DNA of 64,000 bases from Tubulanus polymorphus (Eukaryota > Animalia > Nemertea), in the NCBI RefSeq assembly GCF_964204645.1, contig NC_134031.1:13813807-13877806 (forward strand). Reading direction: 5' to 3'. Shown here one piece after another: positions 8,565 to 42,723 of the stretch; the first letter of the stretch is position 1, and each line of letters opens with the position of its first letter. The translations under genes were made by a program, and so were the position numbers. The notes beneath the pieces were generated by a model, which was given only the letters and a program-made list of their open reading frames with translations, made no database searches and had not been told where the DNA came from.

Positions 8565-8765
<201 letters not shown>

Positions 8766-10003
8766 TCAGATAGCCAAATATGAAAGAAAATTGATTTTAG
8801 AACTAGGGGGCTTCAAGAGGCCCATGGGCCTTGCAGCATTGGTAGATTATACTGTGGTAAGGTATTAAGTGGTTAATGCTTAACATCTGCCGGAAAATGT
8901 TCTTTGACGATGTTGATTGGGAGGACCACAGATTTAAGAATTGAATTTCATATTTTTGCCGAACGATTAAGCCTAGGCTAATTGTACTGTTAAACATCAT
9001 TAATGCTATTTTGTTTAAAAGACAAAACTAGTTTATTCTGATGTTTTCCATCATGTCCCAGCCAAGAGATTTATATCAAGATTTATCAAGGCCCTATTGC
9101 TGAATAATGAAAACAAAAACAGAACGATTCAATGAAAATTTTAGAAATTAAAAGCGTTTTCCCGAACAATAAGAGCGATCTTGAACCCATGAATATCATA
9201 TTTTGGAAGGTAATGGCTATTTCCAATGTGACACATTCATATTTCTCATCCGATTTCGATATTCCAGGCTTGATATGAAAGAATGTTGTGCGCATTTGAA
9301 GCCCTCGATCATCAAAATTGGTGAACGATTTCGTGTCGAAATCAACGTTTTAAATTTCAAAATCGACAAAGCCGGTATCATAGCATTTTCGGTCCAGGTG
9401 ATTTCGGCCCTAATTTCGTGTTAAAAGATATATAATTCATGAACTATTCATTGGAAGTTAACGGGATTAGTTGCGTTAGAAGCAGGAAGCTATTAGCTCT
9501 CATATCATGCCTGGATTATAGAAATCGGATGAGAAATAACGAAATAGTAAGTGACTGAAGTTGAGTAGTTTGTGAGCGTCATTAGCCCCCTTGTTATCTT
9601 ATGTATGTTATATACATAAGATTAACAGATTATCATTTTTACATTACCTACAACTCTGATACCAGCCCCTGTGGTCTGGGTAGGTGGGTACAATAGGATC
9701 GTAGAGCAACAGAGATCACTGCGGAGACAGCCACACTACAGGACTGGGTAAAATGTAAACGCTGTGGCTACTCGTACGGATCCGTACGGATTACTCTGGA
9801 GGCTATTCGTACGGAACTAGGAACTGTACGCTAATAACTGTCACTGATTGGCTGATTTATGCCACGCATGCGCACAGAGGTGCGCGATTTAGAAAATCCA
9901 AGGAAAGTGTGACGAATAATACCACTTGACTAGTCTAGTACCATCGTTCTTGTTTCAAATCCTTAAGGTTAAAATTGACCAAAATCTATGCGTTTTATCA
10001 ACA

Positions 10004-11275
10004 AACTAGGGGTCCAGGGACACCATGCCCACTTGGGAAGTGGTTTCAAATGCTCAACAATCTAACAAATTCAACATTCAACGCCCCCTGGTGACCATTT
10101 ACAAAAACCAATGACCTTGAAACTCACCACAATCATAGAACATGTCAGCAGCTACGATTTTGTAATTGATTGTGATAACAAAATATGCCTCGTTACCAAT
10201 TAAATATGGAAATACTAAGTCATTCTACTATTCAACGCCCCCTGGTGACCATATTCAAAACCCAATGACCTCGAAACTCACCACAATCATAGAACATGTC
10301 ATGAACTACAACTTTGCAATTGATCATGGTGACAAAATATGCCTAGGTACCAATATAATAAGGAAATACTAATTTATTCTACTATTCAACGCCCCCTGGT
10401 GACCATATAGAAAAACTTATGTCCTCAAAACTCGCAACAATCATAGATGATGTCATGAGCTACAACTTTCCAATTGATTGTGGTAACAAAATATGCATAG
10501 GTACGAATATAATAAAGAAATGCTAAGATATTGTATTATTCAACGCCCCCTGGTGGCCATATACGAAATCCAATTACCTTGAAACTCACCACAATCATAG
10601 AACACGTTATGAGCTACAACTTTCTAATTGATTGTGGTAGCAAAATACGCTTGGGTATCAATATAATGTGGAAAAACTTTTTCCCACTTACGAATGAGTA
10701 CTGGTGACACCAAGATGGCCGCCAATGGCGTCATAATTGGCTGATGAAAAATACCTGTCTCAGGTATAACACATCCCTTTCCAAAGAATACCCATCACAA
10801 ATTGTAATGAGAAATGGCAAATCAGTAGGAAGCTACAGGACTCAGAATTCGGGCCAAAATTTACATTTTTGGGCACTAAAAAGGTCATAGGACGGCCATC
10901 TTGAGTCCGACCGACCCAATTTTTGTTATGTTGATGGGCCCTGGGGGGGGATTCACATATATCTGAAAGATCAAGGTAATTGATCGAAGCGTCTTCAAAA
11001 TTTCCCTCAAAAAGTTCAAAAATGTGTAAAAAGTGCTGATTTTGGCGAAAAACAATGGCTGCCCGTCGGCCATCTTGATTCTGACAGGGCCAGTTTTTGG
11101 GCTGAAGATGTGTCTAGGGTAGATACATGTGTAACCCAAATATCAAGACATTACCTTGAAGCGTCTTCAAAACTTCCCAAAATAACTGGATTCCGTCTAC
11201 GGACGGACGAACGGACGACGGACGAAAAGTGAACGCAATAGCCCCCTGGGACTAAAGTCCCAAGTGGGCTAAAAA
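10004..11275 (-). mobile_element. Non-autonomous Helentron-associated element (HINE/DINE-1-like), copy 1
   Basis: 12-bp subterminal inverted repeats GCCCACTTGGGA/TCCCAAGTGGGC, 5' hairpin GGGACT..AGTCCC, CGTC-type microsatellite, internal 154-bp tandem repeats (units at 10077, 10231, 10385, 10539), 3' end GTCCCTGGACCCCTAGTT, T-rich junctions; four copies in the window. Confidence 0.8.
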
Positions 11276-13485
11276 TAACATTAAGAGTAATTTCAGAGAG
11301 GCATATTGAATTTTCACATTTTATTAATTTAGTCCTTATTGAAAATCCCGATTGTGGCAATCAATTCAATTCAAATCATATCAATAAAATCTCCGGTTCA
11401 CGATTTAAATCATCAAAAATATTATTATATAACAGGTTTTCAAAGTCAACAAGGTAACTCATTTATTTATTTTAGTACACAGGTTTGATTTGACACTAAA
11501 ATCAGTTGTTGCATTGCAATAAACAGTGAGTTAACTTCTATACGATACTTTAGCATCAGACGTTGTAGGGAACCGGTAACAATGACTGAAGACCTCAGAC
11601 GACATTCGAGATACGAGGTACGACTTGTTTTACAATACGGGTGTCCGTCCGCTAGCGCCACCGCAGTGTTTTTTTTCAACATTTACTCGGCGTATACTAC
11701 GACACGTGCGCAGGCGGTGTGGCGTAGGCCCCTATACATTAACTATGAATATCAATATGCGAAAAACGTTTCATTTGAAACGAAAAATATTTAAAACAAA
11801 ATAATATTTTGATCATAGAAGTGTAAACTGAATTTGATTTAATTTGGGATCATTGATAACGCGCCGCGTCGGTGGGACTCGAGTGCGGCTGCCCGGGCAT
11901 TGTGGACAGTGTCGAGCGTGAGTGAGGCACCCAGCTGCTGGTCCTACGTCGGCGGGTCTGATCAACAGCGGTGATTTTGAAATCGTATCGCATCGTCTTT
12001 CGCAATTTGTGAGATCCCCTGTCGATCAACTGCTATATAGCTCCCGACAACTAGGCATTCTTGCCGGGGACCGGCTTCACGCTACGTCGATCCTGGGCGA
12101 CTCTAAGTGTGAGACACCGATGGTCCGGTGATTAGAATAGGCTCCAAATACAGGGCTACAGCCCCTAAATCCACCAAAAACCCCTCAAATTTCAAAATCC
12201 ATTTTTGAGTGTAGGCCTACAAAAAACCCTCAAAAAGAGTTAGCCATGGCCCCTTCAAATTGGTGGTGCTAAGAATTGCGCCTAGTCAAGGGTTTAAACG
12301 TCGCGTTCAATCGAGGGTTTTCGATGAAGAATGAAAGATGTATGTATTACGAATGCCGATGACCAAAGAGTTTTTAAAAAAGTCCGACACATGCGGAATC
12401 TGTTTAGTGTACTATGATTTTCAACGAATGAATTGAAACATGGATATGAATTAAAAATACTAAAGATAACATAAATATATTGAATGAATTATTCATTATC
12501 AGAATGGAGTTCCACTGTATCACTCTCAGCTCCTGGCCCTAGTCCAGCTGATTTCGTTTATCACGACGCTTTTTGCGATGGGTGCAAACGCACCATACAA
12601 GCAAAGTTCCGGAGTTCCGCTAATTCCCAGTCTAGAAAAATTTTACTTGATATTTCCATGGATCTCTTATCTTTACAAATGTAAGAGCAGTTGTGTTTTG
12701 CTGAAGGCTTATTATTTATGTGGTTCCTGTATATATTATATATTCCTGTATTATTTATATGGTAGTTTTGTCAATAAACAGTTTTAAAACTGGCCATGTT
12801 AATTGATAAGAATGATCTTAATCTCCGATTATGAAAGTTATTCAGATTCAGCCATTTGGCCCTTTTCATGAAAGATGCCAGAAAAGAAAGATAGCCAAAA
12901 TGCCCTCAGAATACACAAGTACATGTACCTAAATTGAACAAATTTTCAGGGGAGGACCCCAGACTATGGCTTATACTATGGCTACCCAGAAAGACAGTGC
13001 CGCATACTGCCCTGACGGTTAGCGAAAACTGGCTCGTCTCGACTCTCAACGGCTGGTCTAGTTGACTCACCAGTCTGCCCCGGTAGCTCTTTAGGGATGG
13101 CATTTAGTTGGGGATTTCAAACCTTGAGAGAGAGCACGGTTGTTCTTAATCTGGAGACCAGGGCGATGTACGGGTTCCCGGGTTGTTTGGGATTCAAGAA
13201 CTCAGGCTGGGGTGTCAAACAGCGGAGGAGGGGCACAAGAGGGTTGGGATTTCCGGCTGTGGAGTTTTTTTTTAGAATTTTGATTTCTGATGCAGAAAAG
13301 CCGGCCGGTCTACGGCGGGTGGTGAACAGAAGTTATTTTTTCTGCAGGCGGTGAGTAACCGGAACCCCGGCCCCTGAACACAAGGCCGTTTTCAGACCAA
13401 AGGAAGACAAGAAATAGCATAATATCATGAACTTTGTGATTTGAAAAACTTTTCATCGCCCGCAGGAGAGGAACAGCCGGCGCGC

Positions 13486-13972
13486 CTAATGTCTATTTCA
13501 ACCTGACTTGAGAGCATTCCGGGTGGCCTAGCTCGCTAATTTTTGGTGAGACATACCTGACAAAGGTCTTAATAGGACCAGAAAGGACAGGCAGTCGACC
13601 TAAATCATCGAAACTGTATTGAAGGATATCCTAAAAGTCTTCACTGAAAGGGGTTAAATGAAAAGAAGTGACTCCATGATTTGAAAGTTTAACAATATGT
13701 TTCCATGCCTGCGTACCAAACTTCAGTAGGTAGGCATGGAGACATATTGTTAAACTTTCAAATCATGGAGTCTCTTTTCTCTCAGGAACCCCTCTCAATG
13801 CAGATTTTTTGGATATCCTTCAATACGGTTTAAAGTAGATTAGAAAACGATATTTTAGGTCATATGCCAATGCATTCTGTTCCTAATAAGACTTCTATCA
13901 GGTATGTACTACCAAAACTGACTGAGCTAGGCCACCAGGAATGCTCCCAAGTCAGGTTGAAATAGACATTAG
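13486..13972. mobile_element. Foldback MITE
   Basis: Long imperfect inverted arms beginning CTAATGTCTATTTCAACCTGACTTG and ending CAAGTCAGGTTGAAATAGACATTAG. Confidence 0.75.
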
Positions 13973-15122
13973 TCCAGGGTGTTCACAGTATTGCCTAATC
14001 GTTGTGTCCGGTCCAGGTGTCCATTATCCAAAAGAAATATATTTCTGGTTTGAATAAAATGTTGACTATGTTGGTTTTCATATAATTGACGATGACTATA
14101 CGCGTCACCATGTTAAACGATTTAAATGCAGTAAATATTGAAAAAACATACACTGCGGTGGCGCTAGCGGACGGACTGTAAATAAGTCGTATCTCATAGG
14201 ATGTAATATGTCGTATGTTAGGCCTATATGTGGTATCTCGTATGTTATATCTCATATCTCGTATGTTAATCTCATATCTCGAATGTCGTCTGAGGTCTTC
14301 CATAATTAGGGTTTTCTGTTTCTTCACAGAAAACCCTATTGAAATTCGCGTGATTATTATTTTTTTTTCCCTTTTCCACACAGTTTTTGTTAAAAGTGTA
14401 AAGGCTTCCTTACCTTACCGCTGTCGCCGATACAATCCGTATGATATCCTTCAGCTCACTTCAATCTCCAGATACTGCATGGGAATTTTGATAAATCCAC
14501 GTTATAAAGGCACTGTCGAGCCGTAAACATCGGAAATTTGGCTCCGTTCAATTAGTAGCCATGCTGTGTTTTCTTTCCGAAATTTCTCTCTTCTTTATGA
14601 GGAAGAGCTATCGAATTATTCCCTCTCTTCTCCACAATCAATTTCAAAGTCAATTTTATGAATTTATTGCTCAGCGGGTCCGAGTCCAAGAGTTTACGAG
14701 TCCAGCGTTCGCGTGTCTGACAGGTTTACGGGCATTTGTTGGTTACCTCTTTAATATTTTTGATTTCTTGTTATTCCGGTTATTTCATTTAGGTATATTG
14801 CTGATCAGTTCATGTAACCAAAAGCGTCAATAAACAGATTTTGAATTGATCAAGTTTAAATCAAGGTCGTTGAGTCGCGGAGGGCTATTAGAATTACGTT
14901 CGTCTCAGAGAGAAAACAAACAACAGAAAAGTATCAGGTGATTATCGATAGCCTACTACGGTACACACAGTTGACAAACAGTGTTAGGCCTGTGCCGGTC
15001 GGTGAGTACTGGGAATAAATATACTGGTTGTTCAGTTGGTTCGGTTGTGAAGTGTGGAAGCTAAGAAAGCCTACCGGTATGTAGGCCTATTATATAGTAC
15101 CCAATAGCATTTTAAGTACGTA

Positions 15123-15449
15123 GTTGTTACCTGTACGTGACTGTACGGTGATCTCCACAGGTTAACCATACGTGAGTTCCCTACTAACGCCGTACGTGAG
15201 TTCCAATAATCTGCAAACACGCGTGCGTAAAAGAATAGAGTTTGGGTTAGGTGAGGCTAGGCTATTTGTAAATCAAATTTCATCTAACCTGCAGTTACGT
15301 TCTGTGGCACAGTGGGTAAATCACTGGACTACCACTGGATTTTTTTTTTTTCTTTGGTTTCGAATCCCAATATTGCATGTCTGAGCGTCAACGTACTCAC
15401 ATATGGCTAACCTGTAGAAATCACCGTACAGTCACGTACAGGTAACAAC
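15123..15449. mobile_element. MITE with ~30-bp perfect TIRs
   Basis: GTTGTTACCTGTACGTGACTGTACGGTGAT / ATCACCGTACAGTCACGTACAGGTAACAAC. Confidence 0.7.
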
Positions 15450-15638
15450 AGCGTTTTAAGTATTAAGTGAGTGCGACAAGCCTACCATGCCTATGTGCTA
15501 CAAACACAACTTTTTCCCCTCTCGTCGGCCCTACAGTGATGTTACTAATAACTGGTGCCATTATAACATGGATAGGATTTGGTCAGGACTAGCCTAAAGT
15601 CTAATTCAGTGTATGTACTAATTCACTCGATAGGCTTA

Positions 15639-16750
15639 TTTTTAGCCCACTTGGGACTTTGGTCCCAGCGGGCTATTGCGTTCACTTTTCGTCCGTCGTC
15701 CATCGGTCCATAGACGGAATCCAGTTATTTTGGGAAGTTTTGAAGACGCTTCAATGTAATGTCTTGATATTTGGGTTACACATGTATCTACCCTAGACAC
15801 ATCTTCAGCCCAAAAACTGGTCCTGTCAGAATCAAGATGGCCGACTGGCAGCCATTGTTGTTCACCAAATCAACACTTTTTACACATTTTTGAACTTTTT
15901 GAGGGAAATTTTGAAGACGCTTTGATCAGTTACCTTGATCTTTTGGATGTATGTGAATCCCCCCAGGGCCCATCAGCATAACAAAAATTGGGTCGATCGG
16001 ACTCAAGATGACCGTCCTATGACCTTTTTAGTGCCCAAAAATGTCAATTTTGGCCCGAATTCTGAGTGCTGTTGCTCCCTACTGGTAGGCCATTTCTCAT
16101 TGCAATTTGTGATGGGTATTCTTTGAAAAGGGATGTTTTATACCTGAGACAGGTATTTTTGATCAGCCAATTGTGACGCAATTGGCGGCCATCTTGGTGT
16201 CATAAGCACTCATTCGTAGGTGGGAAAAGTTTTTCCACATTATATTGTTGATATTTAAGCATATATTCTTACCACAATCAATTGGAAAGTTGTAGCTCAT
16301 GACATGGTTTATGATTGTGGTGAGTTTGAAGGTGATTGGTTTTTGTATATGGCCACCAGGGGGCGTTTAATAATACAATATCTTAGTATTTCTATATTAT
16401 ATTCGTATCAATGCATATTTTGTAACCACAATCAATTGCAAAGTTGTAGTTCATGACATCATCTATGATTGTGGCAAGTTTTAAGGCCAATAGTTATTCT
16501 ATATGGTCACCAGGGGGTGTTGAATAGTAGCATAACTTAGTATTTCCTTATTATATTGGTACCTAGGCATATTTTGTTACGATGATCAATTACAAAGTTA
16601 TAGTTCGTGACATGTTCTATGATTGTGGTGAGTTTCCAGGTCAGTGGGTTTTGAATATGGTCACCAGGGGGTGTGAATATTGAAATTGTTAGATTGTTGA
16701 GCATTCGGAACCACTTCCCAAGTGGGCATGGTGTCCCTGGACCCCTAGTT
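15639..16750 (+). mobile_element. HINE copy 2
   Basis: Same termini, subTIRs and tandem-repeat block as 10004-11275, opposite orientation. Confidence 0.8.
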
Positions 16751-18407
16751 GAAACAATACAGTGAAGTATTCACAAGCAGAAAGGCCAATTGATTTGAGC
16801 CATGTGATTAAATTTGGCCAGGCCTTCTCTGACCTGACATTAATAGTCAAACCTAGATCCAAAACGTTCATATGGTCACGGCTTGTATACCAGAAATCAT
16901 TGTAGGCCTGTACATTTTGCTGTTCGTAGGTTTGGTATACCGATTTCTCCATTCTTGACCGATAAGTGTATAGTATAGCGTACGCATTATACAATTGTTC
17001 CAATGGGAATAGGGCCTATTGATTGGGCTTATTATTTCGTCCTGCTTTAGAATACTGAAATAAGCCCAACGTTCATTCAAATATCCAACATCAGTGAAAG
17101 TTTGATTAGCCTACTGTATACATGTACTGTAGGTTTTCATGTTGTATGAATATTTTGCAGTTCAAATGAGTATGATGCTGATTCCAATGTCAAACGCATG
17201 AAGTTAGATGGACAGTCAACACCAAGATATCTCTCTTCGACCGATGTTGCACCATAGAAGATCTGATTCTTTCAACTCAAGGAAAGTGATTCAACACGAT
17301 CGACATAACACTGGAATGGGTTTGCAGTAACTAACGGTTCATTTCATTTAGTCCTATGTACTTTTTAGCCAATTTGGATTTGATTGTAATTGAAACTCTG
17401 GAACTGTTAACAAAAGACAAGTTGAAAAAACACAAGTTATGCTTGATTCTCATGTTCAAATTTAATTCAAATTCAAATTTATTATATTACATCATATTTA
17501 CAAAGCATATCATTAGTTCATACAGTAATAAAAGTTAGGACAGAACAAATATTATTACAGAATTTCCAAAAAGGCAATGAATGTCTATAACTAAATGACC
17601 ATCATTTTTCTAATAACTCAGATCAAGAGTGACTCTCCCGTTTATTAGGAAACACACGCAACTAGTGGAATAGGTTTGATTTACACACATGTTGCAGGTA
17701 TCAATTGTTTATCACTATAGAATTTGTAATCCATAAAAGCCGGAATCAGCCGGAAACCCAGACCAGATCAATTCATAATTTATTGATTGAATCTACACTA
17801 CAATATATGTATTTATTCAAATATTTCAATAAAAACATTAACTTCTTAAATCTATTCTAATTCATAATACGTTCTTATCTGTAAATTCACTCAATCTATC
17901 GACTCAGCAGGTGCTTCAAATGAGTTCTTAATAGGACAGATCCATTTTTAAGCATGGTGATAATACAGTATCATGATGTTTGAATGCCAAAATAAATGCC
18001 TGGTCAAATGAATTAATATTTGTTGATTGTACGTCCGCGTATGTTCGGTTTCAAAGGTGAATCATATTTGACGTTAACACAGTGGTAGCATATTAGGTTC
18101 GAATCTGTCAATGCATTTTTATTCTATGTATCGATACTCCAATTTACTACAATTCCCATCTTTCTGAATGGCTTTGCAGAAAACCCGTCATCGCTGCTTA
18201 GCAGCTATATTTCAGACTAATTTTTGAAGTGTCACTTTTTTCAACCGTGTTTTGGCCCTTGTCAGTCATCCCTAACGTTGGTATAAGCCCATCCGATTAT
18301 AAAAAGCTTACTACCAACGGTAAGATTCAAGAATAGGGGACTAGTGGTTAGGTTTATGGTTAGGATTAGGGTTAGGTAACTAACTTAACTACTTCGAAAA
18401 GTAAACT

Positions 18408-20615
18408 CACAGGGGCTTGTAAACTGGCTTGGATTTTACTTCCGGGTTGTTGATAATCTCGCGAGAATGGCGCTAAATTTAAACTGCAAATAAATTCAAA
18501 ATATCACAGAAATACCTCTTGTTGATGTTGTTTATTTATCCACTATAGAGTTTCGATAAACAATTAGCTGTTAAGGATCAGTATCAGCGGGCGCGACGAC
18601 TTACTATATTAAAATAACAAGGGATGAAACGGCTTCGCTTTTGCCTGTGACCGTATTGATGCGGCGGAAACCACTGCGCATGCGCGGCAACTTCCGAGCG
18701 CTAGTGAGCTGTCATTCAAACTACACATTATAGTTTTTCTACATCAATTCAAAAATTGATAATTTCCTTAGAAGTGTGATTGCCTTGGCTTGACATAGGT
18801 TTTTGAGAAGAATCAATTGAACTTGAACTGATCTTAACCTTTCGGAAAGTTGCCGCGCATGCGCAGTGGTTTCCGCCGCATCAATACGGTCACAGGCAAA
18901 AGCGAAGCCGTTTCATCCCTTGTTATTTTAATATAGGCGTCGCGCCCGCTGATACTGATCCTTAACAGCTAATTGTTTATCGAAACTCTATAGTGGATAA
19001 ATAAACAACATCAACAAGAGGTATTTCTGTGATATTTTGAATTTATTTGCAGTTTAAATTTAGCGCCATCAGTCAGGAACACTTTCCAAAAACGGCTTAT
19101 TCTGCCAATTTCGGCGTTTTCCGCCAATAACGGCAGAATCAGCCATTTATGGATTACTCAGTTTTAAACTGCTTCTGCCAATTTAGCCGAAATCGGCGTT
19201 TTCTGCCATTTTTGGCTTGTTCTTAAAAAACGCCATTTCCGCCGTTTTCAGCTGTTACAGTTTTTAAAACTACATCGCCAGAAACGGCGTTTTTAGCTTA
19301 GATAGTTTTACAGGTGCTATTTATAATGCTTAGTTCGATGGGAGTCCCTATTATGACATCATCGCTTTTCTGCTGGCATACATTTGTATATTTGCGCCGA
19401 AAAATTAATCTCATTGATCCGTTCCAGGCTTCAAGAAAGAATTAAATATAAATGTATGGGCTTCCGATGGCAAATGTATTTGAATTCTGTTCTTTCTGTA
19501 TACCTGTATTCTATGAAATAAATATATACATACATGTATCCCAAATTGTTTCGAAAATGTTTGTTGTATTTTGAAATGAGTCTAGATACAGCTGTATCGA
19601 TTTTGAGTTGTAACGTCATCGGCCACCAATTCATTCAATCACTATCCATCACAAGAATCCATCAATTAGCTTGGAGGCATCGAAGATGTTGATTACCTTC
19701 AATTAACCAACATCATATGCCGTCCAATATATCCCTCAACCATTCTATGCTTTATTAGGCAAGATAAGACCATGGGCAAAACTTAAAACTAGATTTTTGA
19801 TACACTAGTTTATACATCCATGATTGATTTGTCTTATGAGAATGATAATTATAATAATAATAATTTTATTTTTATTTTTAACATATAATATTTACACATC
19901 CGTTCACCTCAGCAAATAAATTATTTTATTCCGAAAAAAGTACCGTGTAGACACTGGGGAAACGTCTAAGTGGGTGGGGGAATCCTCATATATAACAAGT
20001 GGACTGCCAATAATGGCTTAATAGTTTATGATTATAAAACTAACTATGCCAAAAACGGCGGAATACGCCAGAAATGGCGAATGTTTTTATGTGTACCCAT
20101 GGCAACGTTTACTTGAAAACTTTATAATAGTTTTTAAAACTAGTTCCCAAATTTATTTTTAACAAAAATCATGATTAATAAACTTGTTTCATGCTGTAGT
20201 AGTTTTGAGAGTTTTCCCGGAGTTTTTGGGCTTCATATGACGTAATCATTTAGAAAAACGTAAATTTGACCACTTTACCTAGCTCAAAAATTTCCATCCT
20301 AGCGTCATATGAAAGCTTATCGTCTGCTCGAGATTATGACGTCATCGGCAACATGCGCTAATTGAACCGGAAGTGCGCAAAAAACTTTAAAGCAAAACTC
20401 GAAACTTAGTGAGCTGAAACTGGCTGATTAAGCCATAAACGACTGTGAAAGTTTCAAAACTGAGTGATCCATAAACGGCTGATTCTGCCGTAATTGGCGG
20501 AAAACGCCGAAATTGGCAGAATAAGCCGTTTTTGGAAAGTGTTCCTGACTGGCCATTCTCGCGAGATTATCAACAACCCGGAAGTAAAATCCAAGCCAGT
20601 TTACAAGCCCCTGTG
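18408..20615. mobile_element. Foldback MITE (~290-bp arms) whose right arm is split by a nested transposon
   Basis: 18408-18697 is the reverse complement of 18842-19069 plus 20557-20615. Confidence 0.8.
19070..20551. mobile_element. Non-autonomous DNA transposon, ~100-bp TIRs, 5-bp TSD GCCAT
   Basis: TIR CAGTCAGGAACACTTTCCAAAAACGGC... at both ends; GCCAT at 19065-19069 and 20552-20556. Confidence 0.85.
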
Positions 20616-20655
20616 GACGTGGTAAACTGTGAGTAAATTAAAAAACAAAACCCAC

Positions 20656-20770
20656 CCGTTTTTGAGTCGAGATCGCCGTGTAAAAAGTTGCAGATGTCGT
20701 CGATACTCTTCTGTGTTCCATTCATTTTCCAGTTTCCACCAACGAAAAATTGTCGCTCAGTTGATGCCAT
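20656..20770 (-). CDS. TPI: TPI coding exon 1 (MASTERQFFVGGNWKMNG...DSKT)
   Basis: FFVGGNWKMNG signature; phase-1 donor G/GTGGGT at 20655. Confidence 0.96.
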
Positions 20771-21289
20771 GGTTCGTAAATAATGGATCGGTTTATCGAT
20801 GGAAAATTGAAACTTCGAAGTTGACCTTGTCGCGTAGAGTTAAAATCGGGACGCTCCGATCGCTGTTAAACCAAACAAAGGGTAACTCCGAAAATATCCA
20901 AGTCACAACGTCCCTATAGAACGATAACCACGCTCAAACGTGGTGAACGTACTAAGATAAAACCCGGCCACTATCTACAAATTAAAAGAATTTAAAAACA
21001 AGAAATTTACTTATTCGAACAATCTAAAATATATAAAATACATGACGTTTGGATCTCACCCAAGAGATCATCGTCAGGTGTGAGATATAGACTAAAAACA
21101 GGGGTATATACAGAGGAGAACATGTTTGTAAATCGGTCAAGTGAGTAGGTAATCTAGTATTGTTTGGCAAGGCATGAAGTAATATACTTAGAAAGAAGGG
21201 AATTGTGCGGAGAAAAGCCATTATTTAAATTGGTGAGTGACTCAACTATGTGGCGGTTTAGTGGGTTGCAGGATCACAAAGTATAAATA

Positions 21290-21449
21290 AGCCTTCGGCT
21301 TTTTCAAAACTAAAACGATGACCAGTGTTCCAAATGTGATTGGCAACGCCACTAGCTGGTTTTTGATTTATTGTACCCTTTTTGTGTTCCGAAATTCGAG
21401 TTTTTGAATCACTACCAGTTTCTCCAAAGTAAATTTTATCATAGAACAT
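21290..21449 (-). pseudogene. Penelope-like retroelement GIY-YIG endonuclease fragment
   Basis: IYFGETG...TRISEH...SGVANHIWNTGH matches the YIGET-R-EH-SxVAxH-GH pattern of Penelope GIY-YIG domains. Confidence 0.75.
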
Positions 21450-21897
21450 CCATATTGCACAGTGCTCCCAGATGCCGATAGACTACATGTCTCCGCCAAG
21501 CTCCTGGCCACCGCCTTCGCTCAGTACCGCCGCACTACTACTCTCTCGGTGAGTCCCCTGTCCGCTGACTCGGAGGAGGACGGTGACCAGGAGGGTTAAA
21601 ATCTAATGAACCTGTGTCCGCCGAAGCTCGTGTTGGCTCGTTGTCGTGAGCTTCTCAGGCGGGAGGCAAGAGAAGGCCTGCAAGGAGGAAGGCAGATATC
21701 TACTGGGGAATTTTTCAAAAAAGTATCTGCGACTGGCCATTAATTTCTAACGACTGACAGCGAAAGTAAAGAGAGTTTCACGACGCTATCTGAAAATAGC
21801 TCACTTTCATCTTACAGTGTATATAAGTTCCCGGCCTGTTTGGTGATCTGGAAAAGTCATAGGCTCCTGAGGAAAAAGTCGTAATCTAGGCTATAAT

Positions 21898-21987
21898 AGT
21901 AATTAGAAAAGTGGGGTTTCAGGCCAGAGGGCGTGAGGGCGAGACACCACTCATCACCACAAGTAATTTTTTTTCCTAATAAATGGG
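21898..21987 (+). repeat. Left TIR of element A (includes the pPolB start codon)
   Basis: Exact reverse complement of 39263-39352. Confidence 0.95.
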
Positions 21988-24900
21988 GGAGAATGAACAC
22001 CAACCAGAAAACAATAATGTCAATAAAAATCAATATTATTGCCAATATTGTAAAAAATACATCGATACATCTCATAAAACACGACATGAAAAAACTGCAA
22101 ATCATATAAAAAATGTAATAGATTTTGAAACTCCAGAAAATTCTAATGAAAGAAAAGAACGATTAGAAAATATGAATGTGGATGAAATAAAATGTGAAGT
22201 TTGTAATGAATTTATAGTAAAAAGGAATTATAATAGACATCTCGAATCACAAAAACATTATAAAAATTTAAATAAAAATGTTTTAGGATTAGAATATTTT
22301 GATAATAAACCTCAACAAGTAAAAGAATCAACTTCAAAAACTAAATCCATTTCAAATAAACCCTACATGGAAAATGTTAGAAATTATATTGATTCACTAG
22401 AAATAAAAGATACAATTGAAATCTTAGAAACATTACATAGTAAAATTGGTCCTGCAGCTATTATATTTAGATTTTTTAAAGGCACAACAATAGAAGATTA
22501 TAGTAAATTTAATGAAATAATAGAAAAAATACTAGATTTGATAACAGATGTTGAATATCCAAAAATTAGTATCTCTGGGAAAGTAAGTTTTATAAAGTCA
22601 GAAGAAAAAATGGATTATAATATTCAAACACTCTCTGAAGAAATAATTTCAAAAACACAAATAAAAGAGAAGTTAGAAAAAATATTAAATGAATTTAAAC
22701 GTCATATTGAAGAAAGATATTTTGAGGGTTCTGGTTTAACATTGAATGAAATTATATATTTAGATTTAAATGTTTATAATACAAAAAGAAATAAAACATC
22801 AAAAAGTAATAAAATGTTTAAAAATGATTCAAACTTTATAACAGAAAAAGATATGAAAGCATCAAGTTATATCAAATTACCATTTATAACAAAAGCAGTA
22901 ATAAATATTCAAAATGAAGATAATAAATGTTTTCTATGGTCAATTATTAGTTGCTTACATCCAACAGAAGAACATGTTTATAGAATAACAGATTACCGGA
23001 AATATGAAACATTATATAAAATTGATCAATATCCAGTAACTATAAAAATGATTCCTAAAATAGAAAAAGTTAATAATTTAAAAATAAATGTATTTGAATT
23101 AATGCAATTACCAAAGACAAAAGGTGAAAATATTAAAGATTATACATTGGAAGCTTTATATTTAACAGAATATTATGATGATGAAAATGCTATAGATTTG
23201 TTATATTACAAAAAAGATGAAAATGAACATTATATGTGGTTAAAACAAATTGATTTATTCTTTAGAACAACAGAAAGTGATCATCATCGTAAAATTTATC
23301 TTTGTAGAAAATGTTTATCTAAATTTATGACTGAGAATACATTATTAAAACATAAAGAATTATGTGATAATAAAGATTTTTGTAAATTAATAATGCCAAC
23401 AGAAAAAGATTATAAATTGAAATTTACTAATCATAAATTTAAAAATATTGTTCCATTTGTAATTTATGGGGATTTTGAATCGTTGAATAAAGAATTAACT
23501 GATCAAGATAGAAAAGAAATATATAACAAAAAGCAATTATTAAAATCAATGGATAAAGGAAATGAATTAAATGAAGATATAATTCAAGACCCACCAATTA
23601 TAAATACAATTAAAAAAGTTCATCAAAGAGCTGCTGCTTATGGAATTTATATAAAATCAAATTATCCCGAATTATATGAAAGTCAATATATTTCTTTTAG
23701 AGGTGAAAATGTAGTTAATGATTTTTGTGATAAAATGATTGAATTAGAAAGTGATTTTGCAAAATTATTAAACAAAAATAAAAGAATAGTTATGACAAAA
23801 GAAGATGAAATTGATTTTAATTATGCAACTCATTGTTGTTACTGTGAAAAACGTTTTTATTCATTTGATAAAAAAGTTAGAGATCATGATCATTTAAATT
23901 CAAAATATCGTGGAGCTGCTCATGAAGATTGCAATTTACAAGCTAAGAAAGTTAATTTCGTACCAATATTATTTCATAATTTATCAGGCTATGATACCCA
24001 TCTATTTATAAAACAATTATCGGGAAAATTGGGTGCAATTAATCAAGAAATAGAAGAATATAATGCTATGAATGAAGCAAATGTAAGAAAATATGATTTT
24101 AAACTATTAGCTAAAACATCTGAAAATTATATTTCATTTCAATTTGGTTGCATTAGATTTTTAGATTCTTATAGATTTCTAGCAAGTTCATTAGATAATT
24201 TATCAAAATCATTAGTTGATAATGATTTTATTATAACTCGATATTATTATCCAAATGAACAAGATTTTAAATTATTGAGATATAAAGGCGCAATTCCTTA
24301 TTCATTTTATAAAACACATGATGATTTTAATGTAACAGAATTATTAAAAGATCAATTTTATGATCAATTAAAAGAGGAGTATGTGAAAGACGAAGTGTTT
24401 AATAGAACATTAAATATTTGGAACCATTTTAAGATGAAAAATCATGGCGAATTAGTTGATTTATATTTAAAATCAGATGTTATGATATTGGCAGATATAT
24501 TTGAAAAGTTTAGAGAAGTTAATCTAAACCATTTTAATGTTGACCCTTGTTATTGTTATTCAAGTCCTGGTTTAACCTGGCAATGTGGTTTAAAATATAC
24601 AAATGTAGAATTAGATTTATTAAAAGAACCAGATATGGTTTTATTATTTGAAAAATCAATTAGAGGTGGAATTAGTGGTGTTATGGGAGATAGGTATTTT
24701 AAAGCAAATGATGAATATAAATTATTATATATTGACGCCAATAATTTATATGGTTGGGCAATGATGCAACCTCAACCATATAAAAATTTTATATTAACAG
24801 AAGTTGAAAATGATGATAAAACTGATTGGGAAAGCGCAATTACGAGTTTAAAAGATGAAGCGCCAATTGGTTACTTCTTTGTTATAGACTTAGAATATCC

Positions 24901-27049
24901 TGAACATATTAAATTTAAATCTAGAAACTTACCTTATTGCCCTGAACATTTAACTGTAGATGATAGTTATTTAAGTGAATACCAGAAGAAAGTAAAACCG
25001 AAAGATCATGTTTTTACGGAAAAATTAATACTTACTCAAAATAATAAATACAATTATATTGTTCATTATAGAATGTTAAAATTTTATCTAAAACAAGGAA
25101 TGAAATTAAAGAAAGTACATAGATATATTGAATTTAATCAATCGAAGTAGTTAGAAAAATATATAGATTTCAATACTCAACAGAGAACCATATCAAAAAC
25201 AGATTTTGAAAAAGATTTCTTTAAATTAATGAACAATAGTTTTTATGGTAAAACATGTGAAAATATTAGAAATAGAAATGATATTGAATTAGTAAATAAT
25301 TCTGAAAGATTAAGACATTTACAATCAAGTCCTAGACATTTAGGAAATAAAAGATTTGAAGATTATTTAACAGCAGTTAAATTAAAAAGAACATCAATGA
25401 AATTTAATAAACCTATATTTATTGGTTCGACTGTTTTAGAAGTATCAAAATTATTAATGTATGATTTTTATTATAATGTTTTACAACCACTTTTTGGAGA
25501 AAAACATATAGAAATATTATATTTTGATTCTGTAACAGCTGACACCCCAATATTATTAAAATGTAATGATAAAATATTGGTAAGAAGAATTTCAGAAATA
25601 ATTCCAAAACAAAATGAATGTTATATTTCATATGGTGAAAAAGAATTAATACAAATAAATGGATTAATGGATGTTTGGACAAGAAATGGATGGAAAAAAT
25701 TAAAGAATATTATTAGACATAAAACAAATAAGAAAATCTATAGAGTTAGAACTAAATTAGGATTTGTAGATGTTACAGAAGATCATAGTTTAATTAAACA
25801 AAATGGTGATGAAATAAAACCAACTGATATAAAAATTAGAGATGAATTATTACATAAAAGATTTTACCCAAGAATGAATCATATGTCATTTGATGAAATA
25901 ATTGATAATATTTATAATATAGAACCCGAAACATTGGAAGAAAAAGAATATTTTATCAAAGGATTTTTCATGGGCGATGGTTCAGCAGGTGTGTATAATT
26001 ATGTTAGTGGAACTAAATATTGTTGGTATTTATGCAATCAAGACTTAAAATTATTAGAAAGAATTAAGAAATTCTGTGAAGAAGTTTATTCACATAAAAC
26101 ATTTAGAATCATGGACCATATGAAATCATCCGCGGTTTATAGAATACTTGTAAATAATCCTAAAGATTTTGCTACAGAATATAATAATGAATTCTATATT
26201 CATGCAATAGTGAAAAGTAATACTTCAACAAAAGAAAAGATAGTTCCAGATTACGTATTAAATGCAAAAAATAATTTAAGAAAATGGTTCTTCATTGGAT
26301 TCTATGCTGCAGATGGTTCAAAAAGTTTCAAAAACCGCAAAACAATATCTTTAGCTCAAAAAGGAAAAGTTGCTATATCAGGATTGAATATATTATGCAG
26401 TTCATTAGGATTTAATATGAATATTGGATTGATTAAATCTAAACCAAATTGCTTTAATTTAAGCCATGTAGAAAATGAGTTAACAGAAGAAGTTAAAGAT
26501 TTATTTGAAATATATAACCCAACAGATTATGTTTATGATTTATCAACTGAAGATGGTACATTTAACTGTGGATTTCCATTAATAGCAGTCAATACGGATG
26601 CCTACATACTAAAAATCAAGACAAATGACATAACAAAAGACTTAAAAACATTAAAACATCATTTTGATTTTAGCAATTATCCTAAAGATCATGAACTATT
26701 TAGCAATGATAATAAAAAGATTCCTGGTAAATTTAAAGATGAATTAGGAGGTGATGAAATGATTGAATTTGTTGGGATAAGAAGTAAAATGTATTCATAT
26801 AAAACTAAAGAACATGAAGCTAAAAAGTTAAAAGGAATAACAAAACTTGTGGTTGATAATCATATAGAATTTCAAGATTATATAAAGTGTTTATATAAAT
26901 CAATTGTAATGAAACACAAAATGAATTGTTTAAGATCAGAAAATCATGAAATGTATATAAATGAAATTGAAAAAACTAGTTTAAATCCATTTGATGATAA
27001 AAGGCATATTTTAGATGATGGTATAAAAACATTACCTTATGGCCATTAA
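21983..27049 (+). pseudogene. polB: Protein-primed family B DNA polymerase polyprotein (N-terminal C2H2-like fingers, vOTU-like protease, exonuclease with HNH/EndoVII-like insert, polymerase, intein); interrupted by TGG>TAG at 25148-25150
   Basis: Motifs YGDFES, FHNLSGYD, FLDS, YLKSDV, YIDANNLYG, KLMNNSFYGK, YFD/TD, KMY, NPFDDKR; NEDNKCFLW..HY protease-like motif; DHDH..YRGAAH..CN. ORFs 21983-25150 and 25229-27049 are in the same frame and copy B has Trp at the stop. Confidence 0.93.
25529..26593 (+). mobile_element. Intein (355 aa) with LAGLIDADG homing endonuclease in pPolB motif C, copy A
   Basis: ILYFD/SVTADTPILL ... TEDH (block B) ... FIKGFFMGDG and FFIGFYAADG (two LAGLIDADG helices) ... 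YVYDLST (block F) ... LIAVN/TDAY; removal restores YFDTD. Confidence 0.95.
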
Positions 27050-36925: not shown

Positions 36926-37531
36926 ATGGTAGGTGAAAAGAAAATAAAATCTAAAAATGGTGATGTTCCAATTGAAAAAACTTTAGATAATTTAGGAATA
37001 ACAGAAACAAAATTAACTCCAGATGATGGTGTTTTAAATAATGTTACAACAAATAATAATTATGAATATTATCTTTATTGTAAACATCAATTAGAAATAT
37101 TAATAGCATCTGGAAAATGTAAAAATTTTGTCAGTAAAAATTTAACTTATAATGAATTAGACACAATGAAATCAGATGAAATTATTAGATTATTTAAGAT
37201 TTATGAAGCCGCGAGAACAGCTAGAATTAATGACGCGATATCATAAAATGTAGTAAAAGGTTATAGTAAATTATGTAATTATATACTACCAATTGAAAAT
37301 GAAAATAGATTATATTCCGATTTAAAAAATGACTATTTAGTTATGACTGAATTAAATAAATGGATTGGATATTTATCATTTCAATTAGGTGGATTTATGA
37401 CATTATTATCAACTGGAGTTATAACATTTTCAAATATTGAAAGTAAAAATATTTCTATAATAAATGAGCGAGGTGAAAGAAGTGAAGGAATTAACTGTGA
37501 AGAAAAAACCGAGAACTCAGAAACAAATTGA
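36926..37531 (+). pseudogene. Hypothetical protein split by GAA>TAA at 37244-37246
   Basis: ORFs 36926-37246 and 37343-37531 are one reading frame that is continuous in copy B (42181-42723). Confidence 0.8.
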
Positions 37532-37832
37532 ATGGTCTCGACAATTAGGAATTAAATCACAAGAATATAAAAAAGCTGTAAAAGAAAAAATAAGTAATAA
37601 AAATGTTAATAAAAATGGTGAAAATATTGTTATTTCTACTCCTTCTAATAATAGAATATTTGATAAATGTCTATATTCTACAGTTGGATTTGTAATTGTA
37701 TTCATTTTGATTGGGTGTAATTGGTATAAGAAATCAAATAAAATTCATGATATTAATAATTCTGAAACAAATGCTATCAAAAATGAAAATACTTCTGAAA
37801 TTCCAAAATTGATAATAAAAAAAATGGATTAA
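37464..37832 (+). CDS. Basic protein with single TM segment (122 aa)
   Basis: ATAAATG start; KKKPRT basic stretch; VGFVIVFILIG hydrophobic helix. Confidence 0.72.
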   Translation: MSEVKEVKELTVKKKPRTQKQIEWSRQLGIKSQEYKKAVKEKISNKNVNKNGENIVISTPSNNRIFDKCLYSTVGFVIVFILIGCNWYKKSNKIHDINNSETNAIKNENTSEIPKLIIKKMD

Positions 37833-38317
37833 TATTTTAGAAAAAAAGCAAAAAAAATAATTTTTTTTAATTAATTGAATATTAATTGAATATCTCACTA
37901 CTTTTGTCTATCTATGCGGAGCAATTAAATTGTCCAGATAAGTCATTTCGGATTCTAGATATTCATTATTTTTATTATTTTATTTTGTTTTTACTTGAAT
38001 ATTGTATTACAGTCGTTTCTTATTATTAGTTTTTTCTTAAATTGAAAGATGGCAGCACTGGGTGTGATGCTAAAATGAATATTTGAATTTGAATTTGAAT
38101 TTGTTAATCAATTAACATAGTAATTGATCACTAATTTGATTAAAAATTATATCATAATGAAGTTAAAAATACATAATTCATTTATCAGTTTCATTCTTAC
38201 ATTCTTTTCATTCAGAATAATTTATAATTTCAAATTTCACATATTTTTTTAACACCAACAACATTTACTTAGGTGTTTTAGCTAAGTATATAAGGTAATT
38301 CATTCAACCACTAGAGT

Positions 38318-38600
38318 GCCGCCGGGCTTGGCTTGCAGGGGCATTTCGAAAATGCACCTTTGCTCCGTGGTTCTCCTTCAGTTTCGACTTTCGATCCTCC
38401 TTTCGGGGGTAAGGGGTTGATAGGAAATGCATCAGGCGCCTTTAATATAATGTGTTTCCTGTCAACCATTGAAGGAGAATTGGTGAGGTGTGGGTCACAG
38501 GGGTGTAAGTAGAAGTGCTTGGGGATAGGTATCTCGTGGCGCCTCTCAATAACGGGATGCTTATCCCCTAAAAACTCTGCGAGTCAAGACGGGTGGTTTT
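38318..38600 (+). ncRNA. Putative structured non-coding RNA (~280 nt), possibly a Pol III transcript
   Basis: GC-rich ORF-less island with nested helices whose mismatches are G-U wobbles on the + strand; TATATAA at 38287; first TTTT at 38597-38600. Confidence 0.7.
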
Positions 38601-38940
38601 GCTAAAACTTACCATAAAAACATTGAAATATTCCTTTTAATCACGATAGAATGATGACTATCCTCCTGTTGTCACGGTTGAGCTAATTTAAATAAACCTC
38701 GTTTTCAGCAACTAATGAAAACGTAGTAATTCAATACCAGCTAACTGGCTTGTGTGTGTTGTATGTACTGTGTGCTTATTATATAACAACAACGTTGTGC
38801 AACACCTGTTTGATTGATAAATATTCAAATGAAGCACTCTCTTACAATAATATGTAACAGATGTACTGTATGATTATAGTTGTTTATAAAACGACTAAGG
38901 TCATTTTGGATTCTAGATATTCATTATTTTTATTTCTTAT

Positions 38941-39267
38941 TTAATCAACAATTTCTAAATCATGATGACCGTCTTCATTTTTCCCATGATATATTATTTT
39001 AAATCCTACTAAATCTTTCAATTCCTCCATACTCAATGAAACCCATTTATCGGGTAAAAACACTTTAAATTCTCGTGATGTACTAACATTACAGTAGCTT
39101 AAATTAGCTGATACTTTCTCTCCATATTTAGTTTTTATCTTTTCTAATTTCAATATTTTATGTTCAATTTCTTTTGTAACATCAACTAACTTTTTTATTT
39201 CAAATTGTTTTTTTGCTGGTTTTATTCTGTTATTTATTGTTGCTAAGAATGCTTTTCTATCTCCCAT
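38941..39267 (-). CDS. 108-aa terminal protein (possibly OB-fold ssDNA-binding; unverified)
   Basis: Start codon inside right TIR; nearly identical in copy B; TKYG...VFLP beta-rich pattern. Confidence 0.7.
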   Translation of the reverse strand: MGDRKAFLATINNRIKPAKKQFEIKKLVDVTKEIEHKILKLEKIKTKYGEKVSANLSYCNVSTSREFKVFLPDKWVSLSMEELKDLVGFKIIYHGKNEDGHHDLEIVD

Positions 39268-39352
39268 TTATTAGGAAAAAAAATTACTTGTGGTGATGAG
39301 TGGTGTCTCGCCCTCACGCCCTCTGGCCTGAAACCCCACTTTTCTAATTACT
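39263..39352 (-). repeat. Right TIR of element A
   Basis: Reverse complement of 21898-21987; followed by TSD TATAAT. Confidence 0.95.
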
Positions 39353-40240: not shown

Positions 40241-41208
40241 TTTTTAGCCCACTTGCGACTTAAGCCTATTGCGTTCACTTTTCGTCCGTCTGTCCGTAGA
40301 CGGAATCCAGTTATTTTGGGAAGTTTTGAAGACGCTTCAAGGTAATGTCTTGATATTTGGGTTAAACATGTATCTACACTAGACACATCTTCAACCCAAA
40401 AACTGGCCCTGTCAGAATCAAGATGGCCGACTGGCAGCCATTGTTGTTCGTCAACATCAGCACTTTTTACACAGTTTTGAACTTTTTGAGGAAAATTTTG
40501 TAGACGCATTGATCAATTAGCTTGATCTGTCGTATATATTTGAATCTTCCAAAAGCCCATTCCAGCGTAAGAAAAATTGGGTCGATCGGACTCAAGATGG
40601 CCGTCCTATGACATTTTTAGTGGCCAAAATTGTCGATTTTGGCCCGAATTCTGAGTCCTGAAGCTTCCTACTGGTTTGCCATTTCTCATTGCAATTTGTC
40701 ATTGGTACTCTTTGGAAAGGGATGTTTTATACCTGAGAGACAGGTACGTATTTTTGATCAGCCAATCATGACGCCATTGGCGGCCATCTTGGTGTTGTCA
40801 GTACTCTTTCGTAGGTGGAAAAACGTTTTTTGACATTATATTGATACCTAAGCATATTTTGTTACCACTGGTTTTAAGGACATTATTATATTTTATATGG
40901 TCACCAGGGCGCGTTGAATAGTAGAATAATTTAGTATTTCCTTATTAGATTGGTACCTAGGCATATTTTGTTACCATGATCGATTACAAATTTGTTGCTT
41001 ATGACATGTTCTATGATTGTGGTTAGTTTCAAGGTCATTGGGTTTCGCATATGGTCACCACGGGGCGTTGAATAGTAGAATTACTTAGTATTTCCATATT
41101 AAAATGGTAACGAGGCATATTTTTTATCACAATCAATTACAAAATCTGCTGACACGTTCTATGATTGTGGTGAGTTTCAAGGTCATTAGTTTTTGTATAT
41201 GGTATATG
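40241..41208 (+). mobile_element. HINE copy 3, 5' part (interrupted by Polinton B)
   Basis: Same 5' end and tandem block as other copies; sequence resumes at 57616. Confidence 0.85.
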
Positions 41209-41329
41209 AGTAATTAGAAAAGTGGGGTTTCAGATCAGAGGGCGAGAGGGCGAGACACCACTCATCACCACAAGTAATTTTTTTTTTCCTACTCATCACC
41301 ACAAGTAATTTTTTTTCCTAATAAATGGG
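41209..41329 (+). repeat. TIR of element B with internal ~30-bp tandem duplication
   Basis: Matches 57526-57615; ACTCATCACCACAAGTAAT(T)nCCT occurs twice (41260-41290, 41291-41319). Confidence 0.92.
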
Positions 41330-41651
41330 AGATAGAAAAGCATTCTTAGCAACAATAAATAACAGAATAAAACCAGCAAAAAAACAATTTGAAATAAAAA
41401 AGTTAGTTGATGTTACAAAAGAAATTGAACATAAAATATTGAAATTAGAAAAGATAAAAACTAAATATGGAGAGAAAGTATCAGCTAATTTAAGCTACTG
41501 TAATGTTAGTACATCACGAGAATTTAAAGTGTTTTTACCTGATAAATGGGTTTCATTGAGTACGGAGGAATTGAAAGATTTAGTAGGATTTAAAATAATA
41601 TATCATGGGAAAAATGAAGACGGTCATCATGATTTAGAAATTGTTGATTAA
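41325..41651 (+). CDS. 108-aa terminal protein, copy B
   Basis: One substitution relative to copy A. Confidence 0.7.
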   Translation: MGDRKAFLATINNRIKPAKKQFEIKKLVDVTKEIEHKILKLEKIKTKYGEKVSANLSYCNVSTSREFKVFLPDKWVSLSTEELKDLVGFKIIYHGKNEDGHHDLEIVD

Positions 41652-41776
41652 ATTTAAAAAAAAATAAATTAATAAAAATAATGAATATCTAGAATCCGAA
41701 ATGACTTATCTGGACAATTTAATTGCTCCACATAGATAGACAAAAGTAGTGAGATATTCAATTAATATTCAATTAA

Positions 41777-42184
41777 TTAAAAAAAATTATTTTTTTTTTG
41801 CTTTTTTTCTAAAATATTAATCCATTTTTTTATTATCAATTTTGGAATTTCAGAAGTACTTTCATTTTTGATAGCAGTTGGTTCAGAATTACTAATATCA
41901 TGAATTTTATTTGATTTCTTATACCAATTACACCCAATCAAAATGAATACAATTACAAATCCAACTGTAAAATATAAATATTTATCAAATATTCTACTAT
42001 CAGAAGGAGTAGAAATAACAATATTTTCACCATTTTTATTAACATTTTTATTACTTATTTTTTCTTTTACAGCTTTTTTATATTCTTGTGATTTAATTCC
42101 TAATTGTCGAGACCATTCAATTTGTTTCTGAGTTCTCGGTTTTTTCTTCACAGTTAATTCCTTCACTTCTTTCACTTCGCTCAT
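41777..42184 (-). CDS. Basic single-TM protein, copy B (C-terminus altered by an A-run indel)
   Basis: Homolog of 37464-37832. Confidence 0.68.
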   Translation of the reverse strand: MSEVKEVKELTVKKKPRTQKQIEWSRQLGIKSQEYKKAVKEKISNKNVNKNGENIVISTPSDSRIFDKYLYFTVGFVIVFILIGCNWYKKSNKIHDISNSEPTAIKNESTSEIPKLIIKKWINILEKKQKKNNFF

Positions 42185-42723
42185 TTATTATAGAAATATT
42201 TTTTACTTTCAATATTTGAAAATGTTATAACCCCAGTTGATAATAATGTCATAAATCCACCTAATTGAAATGATAAATATCCAATCCATTTATTTAATTC
42301 AGTCATAACTAAATAATCATTTTTTAAATCGGAATATAATCTATTTTCATCTACAATTGGTAGTATATAATTACATAATTTACTATAACCTTTTACTACA
42401 TTTTCTGATATCGCGTCATTAATTTTAGCTGTTCTCGCGGCTTCATAAATCTTAAATAATCTAATAATTTCAACTGATTTCATTGTATCTAATTCATTAT
42501 AAGTTAAATTTTTATCAACAAATTTTTTACATTTTCCAGATGCTATTAATATTTCTAATTGATGTTTGCAATAAAGATAATATTCATAATTATTATTTGT
42601 TGTAACATTATTTAAAGCACCATCATCTGGAGTTAATTTTGTTTCTGTTATTCCTAAATTATCTAAAGTTTTTTCAATTGGAACATCACCATTTTTAGAT
42701 TTTATTTTCTTTTCACCTCCCAT
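42181..42723 (-). CDS. Hypothetical protein (180 aa), copy B
   Basis: Continuous homolog of 36926-37531. Confidence 0.75.
   Translation of the reverse strand: MGGEKKIKSKNGDVPIEKTLDNLGITETKLTPDDGALNNVTTNNNYEYYLYCKHQLEILIASGKCKKFVDKNLTYNELDTMKSVEIIRLFKIYEAARTAKINDAISENVVKGYSKLCNYILPIVDENRLYSDLKNDYLVMTELNKWIGYLSFQLGGFMTLLSTGVITFSNIESKKYFYNK

Follow-up and report, generated by a model that had tools for sequence, protein, structure and literature searches.

The closest described systems are inteins of B-type DNA polymerases and nuclease inserts in the polymerase of Polintons (pPolB). The PolB intein of Mimivirus sits at YGD/TDS (a slash marks the insertion point throughout), the pol-c allele, and the accessible part of the same report also mentions an intein of an insect iridovirus (PMC549080). 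The survey of eukaryotic inteins in Green 2018 counts none in Metazoa and, in the portions available, assigns DNA polymerase inteins to viruses only (PMC5784728). HNH and VSR nuclease inserts have been described in polinton pPolB by Jeong 2023 (PMC10748475), and intein invasions were suggested by Krupovic 2024 as the source of the homing endonuclease inserts, with HNH/VSR domains, found in this polymerase (PMC11071308). The words "intein", "LAGLIDADG" and "Hint" do not occur in the available text and supplement of Jeong 2023 (PMC10748475). A term search returned no "intein" in the indexed text and supplement of the adintovirus paper (Starrett 2021, PMC8502044) or in that of the coral polintoviruses paper (PMC11131425), and no "polinton" in that of PMC10710043; the accessible parts of PMC12220804 and PMC3671162 hold general mentions only. 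This literature, mostly open-access, partly available and exclusive of RepBase and InBase, yielded no account of a Hint/LAGLIDADG intein in a Polinton, and a prior note is possible. The sequence-only reading of the present locus knew of no such intein either, which stands for the literature searched, with the reservation that Krupovic 2024 had already raised intein invasions in connection with the HNH/VSR inserts (PMC11071308).

The window analysed here, the whole stretch of 64,000 nucleotides, contains two Polintons in opposite orientation, both complete and both with exact target duplications (Table 1). They show the features by which Polintons are recognised, namely a pPolB, an rve integrase, terminal inverted repeats and a 6-bp target duplication, and their GC content is about 23%, versus about 39% outside. 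The weak PF03175 match of their polymerase fits the Beta class (group 1), as far as this class is described in the accessible text of PMC8502044. The likely capsid protein is a lead only: it has low recognition value and no Pfam match, and few of the viral clusters that it resembles carry Capsid_N or DJR families, on 10-24% of their members. No Pfam match to an adenain-type protease was obtained among the 14 proteins scanned, a set to which the small ORFs past 36,900 do not belong. Element 1 exceeds element 2 in length by about 1 kb, and the counterpart of its 532-aa ORF in element 2 is reduced to 239 aa (46007-47521).

Table 1. Features of the window (positions in the window; residue numbers refer to the copy 1 intein)
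Feature	Position	Strand	Details
Host triosephosphate isomerase (TPI) gene	3178-20770	-	at least six exons, long introns
Polinton element 1	21898-39352	+	17,455 bp; terminal inverted repeat about 93 bp; 6-bp target-site duplication TATAAT
pPolB, element 1	21983-27049	+	1,688 codons including intein; PF03175 E 4e-14
Intein copy 1	25529-26593	+	355 aa, no stop; boundaries equal the read joint
N-terminal splicing region, copy 1 intein	about aa 1-110
LAGLIDADG endonuclease, copy 1 intein	about aa 139-312		D150, K237, D262
C-terminal splicing region, copy 1 intein	aa 313-355		D337, N355
Likely double jelly-roll major capsid protein, element 1	33627-34853	+	feature score 0.97-0.98 to viral clusters; lead only
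rve integrase with chromodomain, element 1	34905-36032	+	PF00665 E 2e-10
A32-like packaging ATPase, element 1	36033-36641	+	PF04665 E 1e-12
Polinton element 2	41209-57615	-	16,407 bp; terminal inverted repeat; 6-bp target-site duplication TATATG
pPolB, element 2	52466-57530	-	frameshift near 55,000, giving ORFs 55002-57530 and 52466-54880
Intein copy 2	52922-53986	-	355 aa, 90% aa identity to copy 1

The polymerase of each element is split by an in-frame insert. In copy 1, the insert stands between YFD and TDA, dividing the YFD/TD motif of pPolB, and reads SVTADTP...VDVTEDHSL...GFFMGDG...GFYAADG...YVYDL...PLIAVN. Both copies hold S1, T83/H86, the block-F D337, N355 and a +1 Thr, and both have two LAGLIDADG helices with D150, D262 and K237, the last of which we take to be the catalytic Lys of the endonuclease. 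The penultimate His, a dispensable position in inteins, is absent: Val is found in copy 1 and Lys in copy 2, which ends in QKN, and among 119 relatives the endings are KN in 55 (the commonest), HN in 33 and VN in 4. All 11 aligned Polinton inteins retain S1, T83/H86, D150, K237, D262, D337 and the terminal Asn, and the splicing residues and both LAGLIDADG Asp agree with those listed for the Mimivirus intein. The 11 Polinton inteins with both ends measure 333-355 aa, and none is a mini-intein.

Profile searches and structure prediction give the same picture. Both copies score above the cut-off for TIGR01445, the intein N-terminal profile (30.4 and 30.7 versus 24.5), and for LAGLIDADG_3 (PF14528; 34 and 26.4 versus 22.5), and lie just under the Pfam cut-off for Intein_splicing (32.6 and 31.5 versus 35.8, E about 1e-7). 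The sole match of the intein in a PDB sequence search is PI-PkoII (E 4e-7). An AlphaFold2 model built on a 29-row alignment has a mean pLDDT of 91.2 and a pTM of 0.91, and its top matches in Foldseek are without exception homing inteins: TliVMA (E 1.5e-18), PI-PkoII (4e-17), PhoVMA, PI-PfuI and PI-SceI. On this model, the insert is predicted to have the Hint fold, like archaeal homing inteins. Taken as a whole, the evidence supports a canonical full-length intein of the Pol-c allele with a LAGLIDADG domain. A Hedgehog or Hint-only domain is ruled out by the endonuclease and by the existence of empty alleles, and a spliceosomal or group I intron by the open frame, the protein-splicing motifs and the presence of the joined form in DNA reads.

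Alleles free of the intein are found under the same species label. Four read runs from two studies were aligned to 24600-27400 at 85% likeness, and in each of them the polymerase and its intein are fully covered by abundant reads. Run X5 is raw WGS from a study other than that of X1-X3. In this run, 41 reads (28 starts) show a gap of exactly 1,065 nt at the intein. The interval is also missing from two further classes, of 44 and 12 reads, in which 5 and 9 other letters, respectively, occupy the site and the net gap is again 1,065 nt; this makes 97 reads with a net gap of that length, besides 3 with a net gap of 1,066. Since the joint skips exactly 1,065 nt, the boundaries of the intein are given independently of its motifs. 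Read depth is about 120-260 over the intein versus 280-660 on its flanks, and many intein positions are polymorphic. The classes of skipping reads, the depth and the polymorphism together imply that several filled and several empty families coexist in one species. A search with the N-extein, whose length window excluded full-length filled proteins, listed 120 relatives, of which 116 have an empty motif and 4 have no motif; the closest empty polymerase, P0167, shares 89% identity over 300 aa. The sequence-only reading is thus borne out on the in-frame 355-aa insert in both elements, by translation and by the read joint, and on every one of its motifs in both copies (Ser1, TEDH, the two LAGLIDADG helices, YVYDL, the terminal Asn and the +1 Thr). 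Those of its proposed checks that rest on sequence comparison came out as follows: two of three profiles lie above cut-off, intein-less alleles occur under the same species label and among relatives, and the phylogeny with NCLDV inteins, considered below, places the Polinton clade among giant-virus-type Pol-c inteins.

The intein has its best matches in other pPolBs that bear this insert (P0046, 63% identity; P0047, 49%; P0048, P0049 and P0050, 46%; P0054 and P0055, 42%), followed by family-B1 polymerases of the form YGD/S...N/TDS at about 30-42%. A search of IMG/VR gave 37 loci, 17 of them named as giant-virus MAGs, and the loci matched from residue 1 mostly have YGD or VGD ahead of the insert. 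A search of 1.84 billion proteins gave 2,096 matches; blastp gave no match to a pPolB extein for any of the 138 new matches among the best 150 of these, and 105 of the 111 new matches that could be parsed have YGD ahead of the intein. The phage collection yielded two weak matches (26-27% identity). The 119 relatives were reduced to 97 rows, the two window copies included, by dropping 3 mis-parsed junctions and all inteins shorter than 300 or longer than 460 aa, and 49 chosen rows entered an IQ-TREE phylogeny. In this tree, the 11 Polinton inteins form one clade (support 100/100), nested among Pol-c inteins of giant-virus-type PolBs, and its sister group (81/80) consists of the giant-virus MAG inteins L001 and L009 and three shorter polymerases that look phage-like to us. 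The tree supports a single old entry into Polintons that would have come from a B1-type PolB, and a giant-virus-type PolB is the likely donor class, the sister group being only moderately resolved.

Several distant Polinton lineages share the intein, which has diverged in step with their polymerases, and the acquisition therefore looks old and not specific to this species; a recent acquisition here is ruled out, as the intein clade is common to lineages with 45-61% extein identity. Related inteins occur in other settings. A Chloropicon primus protein named DNA polymerase delta catalytic subunit (P0151) carries a 342-aa intein at YGD/TDS, that is, a Pol-c intein in a cellular nuclear polymerase, and four proteins with type II topoisomerase Pfam domains (P0051, P0137, P0143, P0164) carry related, non-allelic inteins with 29-33% identity.

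The distribution of the intein among polymerases speaks of its past movement. Filled polymerases are scattered among empty ones, with 6 changes on a 39-row tree, at least 4 of them forced; being counts of changes alone, these do not separate gain from loss. Monophyly of the intein-bearing polymerases is rejected (p-AU 1.5e-5) on the 24 rows kept after 15 of the 39 were dropped as long, short or redundant. Among Beta-type Polintons, the identities of intein and extein run parallel (64/61, 52/51, 50/45, 49/45, 43/49 and 45/49%), which points to long co-descent with losses or re-invasions among near kin. In P0049, the intein is 48% identical and the N-extein 25%, near the 17-20% of B1 polymerases, which suggests a transfer between pPolB classes; the AU test does not secure a place for this intein within those of the Beta type (p-AU 0.216, 23 rows). 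P0049 lies on a 5.3-kb contig and is a strong PF03175 pPolB, with 111 bits versus about 52 for the window type, and presumably bears a VSR-like motif.

The family of P0047 shows filled and empty forms side by side. Of 15 listed members of its 90% cluster (136 members), 7 are filled (1,537-1,539 aa) and 4 empty (1,121-1,193 aa); the other four are one with a divergent empty site (P0294, left out of the family counts) and three that end short of the site. The divergence between filled and empty forms is 0.8-2.9% across residues 42-1021, rises to 20-21% close to the site (within 20 aa) and is 4-5% past +50, and all 11 fixed differences between the 7 filled and the 4 empty forms fall between -7 and +44; a naive probability for this clustering was set aside because the sites are linked on one tract. 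The pattern fits co-conversion of the donor flanks or survival of resistant targets, either of which implies an endonuclease that once worked. Contigs in the related filled/empty family reach 1.0 Mb. In the cluster of P0050, an empty allele and a filled one show 3 differences in 746 columns.

Divergence between the two window copies bears on selection. The endonuclease is under purifying selection (dN/dS 0.20; 24/423 nonsynonymous versus 24/99 synonymous sites, Fisher p 3e-7), a signal from one pair of copies which reflects history rather than present activity. The ratio is 0.22 for the whole intein, 0.23 for each splicing part, and 0.07 and 0.15 for the exteins. Synonymous divergence between the elements is 0.17-0.26 over the intein and the adjoining polymerase parts (24635-27046), and 0.02-0.10 in four other genes and the N-part of the polymerase. 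A mosaic of this kind, with the intein at its centre, is what conversion by a more distant family would produce. Of the 12 residues just past the second LAGLIDADG helix (aa 264-275, 26318-26353), 7 differ between the copies, possibly through drift in DNA-contacting residues.

The preferred reading, to which we assign a probability of roughly 80%, is that of a Pol-c intein at YxD/TD of a Polinton pPolB, predicted to be self-splicing and likely homing into coexisting intein-free Polinton polymerase genes. In an intact precursor, Ser1 would undergo an N-O shift aided by T83/H86, followed by transfer to the +1 Thr and cyclisation of Asn355, and splicing would restore the YxDTD motif. Because this motif carries a catalytic Asp, a filled element would need splicing for polymerase activity and replication. 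The endonuclease would cut the empty site, and repair from a filled copy would transfer the intein together with some of its flank; the partners may be integrated paralogues or co-replicating extrachromosomal genomes. A single ancient transfer from a giant-virus-type PolB would have brought the lineage into Polintons, where it would have lasted by inheritance, interspersed with losses and renewed invasions, and at least once it would have crossed into a very distant pPolB class.

The alternative that survives best, though unlikely, is that the intein still splices but its endonuclease no longer homes in this species; it would be inherited with the element, empty forms would arise by recombination with intein-free families, and the surviving sites would be resistant. 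Vertical descent with losses would also explain the parallel divergence of intein and polymerase, two of the three classes of empty-site reads have other letters at the site, and no empty form of the P0047 family has the site of the filled ones, an observation equally in line with resistance and with co-conversion. However, the endonuclease domain is whole and under purifying selection, none of the 11 Polinton inteins has shrunk to a mini-intein, and the empty allele of the P0050 family has flanks like those of the filled form.

The present state of the two window polymerases raises another alternative. An in-frame stop (25148-25150) lies upstream of the intein in element 1, and neither this stop nor the frameshift of element 2 appeared in the sequence-only reading. 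Because of these breaks, a full-length polymerase cannot now be made from either copy, and the two are recently disabled passengers. A dead insertion, unable to splice, in filled Polintons that are non-autonomous and use the polymerase of empty copies, would agree with both breaks and with the missing penultimate His. Nevertheless, it is very improbable: neither break touches the intein, purifying selection has acted on exteins and intein alike (dN/dS 0.07-0.23), all aligned Polinton inteins keep the splicing residues, and uninterrupted filled polymerases (1,476-1,693 aa) are present in several families. The polymerase of element 1 also shows a weak match to endonuclease VII, which is HNH-like (23804-23941, PF02945 E 0.038). 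Matches of this type are common among its relatives and represent a second domain of nuclease type, next to which no splicing domain is matched.

The flank of the elements is marked as eukaryotic chromosomal DNA by the intron-rich TPI gene, whose first intron is about 12 kb and whose start codon lies about 1.1 kb from element 1, the latter being upstream (20770-21898). The best PDB matches of three TPI exons are 3th6, 5eyw and 5zga, which we take to be invertebrate TPI enzymes. Plant entries likewise score well for one exon, and the flank therefore points to an invertebrate, short of proof. Element 2 sits inside a dispersed host repeat with 154-bp tandem units (flanks 41150-41208 and 57616-57714), of which other copies are found at 10076-10678, 16183-16750 and 62685-63700. 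Among the matches listed, four of five named polymerase relatives come from animals (a beetle, a spider and two bivalves). UniRef assigns one Polinton-type polymerase (P0173) to Sulfurimonas sp., probably because of a mis-binned contig. The Polintons are likely integrated in an invertebrate animal chromosome. That elements or intein are foreign to the animal genome, through an assembly chimera, a symbiont or a giant-virus contaminant, is barely credible: the drop in GC inside the elements would agree with it, but the exact target duplications and terminal inverted repeats, the interruption of a host repeat by element 2, the spliced TPI gene with top matches taken to be invertebrate enzymes, the abundant polymerase and intein reads in four of four runs from two studies under one species label, and the mostly animal origin of the named relatives all stand against it.

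These results qualify several earlier proposals on the same locus. That inteins are essentially unknown from animal chromosomal genes agrees with the zero count for Metazoa in the available part of the Green 2018 survey (PMC5784728), but the carrier here is a Polinton gene rather than a host gene. Assignment to the Pol-c site holds, as the position matches the YGD/TDS of Mimivirus in the accessible text of PMC549080 and the kin are other Pol-c inteins. Acquisition by a Polinton lineage agrees with the single clade, although the event is old, shared by distant lineages and not one of this species; a co-infecting large DNA virus as donor agrees with the giant-virus-type PolBs being the nearest non-Polinton relatives, but the sister group is supported at only 81/80 and has phage-like members. 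The proposal of a gene drive brought into an animal genome is right as to integration in a likely animal chromosome; since the intein sits in a proviral gene, the targets of any drive would be copies of the Polinton polymerase rather than host alleles.

A broader claim, for which we see even odds, is that animal germlines host an active homing-intein cycle, in which a giant-virus-derived lineage, long resident in Polintons, splices, converts empty copies, selects resistant sites and has crossed two deep pPolB classes. If so, Polintons could not replicate without protein splicing, and Metazoa would have inteins after all. Apart from this claim, a full homing intein in multi-copy elements of a likely animal chromosome shows a route for entry and persistence, and it records at the molecular level that Polintons and giant-virus-type polymerases exchanged genes in the past. 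It also bears on the activity of animal Polintons, since selection on the endonuclease requires a translated precursor and the meeting of filled and empty genomes. With filled and empty paralogues together, the homing cycle, co-conversion and target resistance become measurable from sequence in a multi-copy setting.

In comparison with known systems, the window insert shares with the HNH/VSR inserts its nature as a nuclease domain placed in a Polinton pPolB (PMC10748475, PMC11071308). Unlike these, which are described without a splicing domain in the text available, it has a full splicing domain, a position in the active-site motif and exact empty alleles. With the Beta-class adintoviruses or group 1 Polintons, as described in the accessible part of Starrett 2021 (PMC8502044), the elements share the divergent pPolB with its weak PF03175 match, the rve integrase, the A32/FtsK ATPase, the likely capsid and the terminal inverted repeats; they differ from them in the intein and in that adenain was not found among the 14 proteins scanned. 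Like the nuclear inteins of Prp8, VMA1 and RNA polymerase (PMC5784728, in the portions available), the intein resides in a eukaryotic nuclear chromosome and has filled and empty alleles, but its carrier is a proviral gene with many paralogous targets instead of one host locus. The closest likeness is to the inteins of Mimivirus PolB and archaeal PI-PkoII (PDB 2cw7), with which it has in common the YxD/TD position, Ser1, the N3 Thr/His, the terminal Asn and the +1 Thr, as well as the length of about 350 aa and the two-motif LAGLIDADG domain of Mimivirus and archaeal Pol-c inteins; it is about 40-46% identical to giant-virus-type inteins. In contrast to the NCLDV and archaeal hosts of Pol-c inteins, the window pPolB shares only 17-20% identity with their polymerases along the 140 aa that precede the site, the carrier is an element that integrates and exists in many copies, here in a likely animal chromosome, and the Polinton inteins form a clade of their own. 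The type of intein is thus already known, and what is new here is its host: a Pol-c homing intein in a Polinton pPolB.
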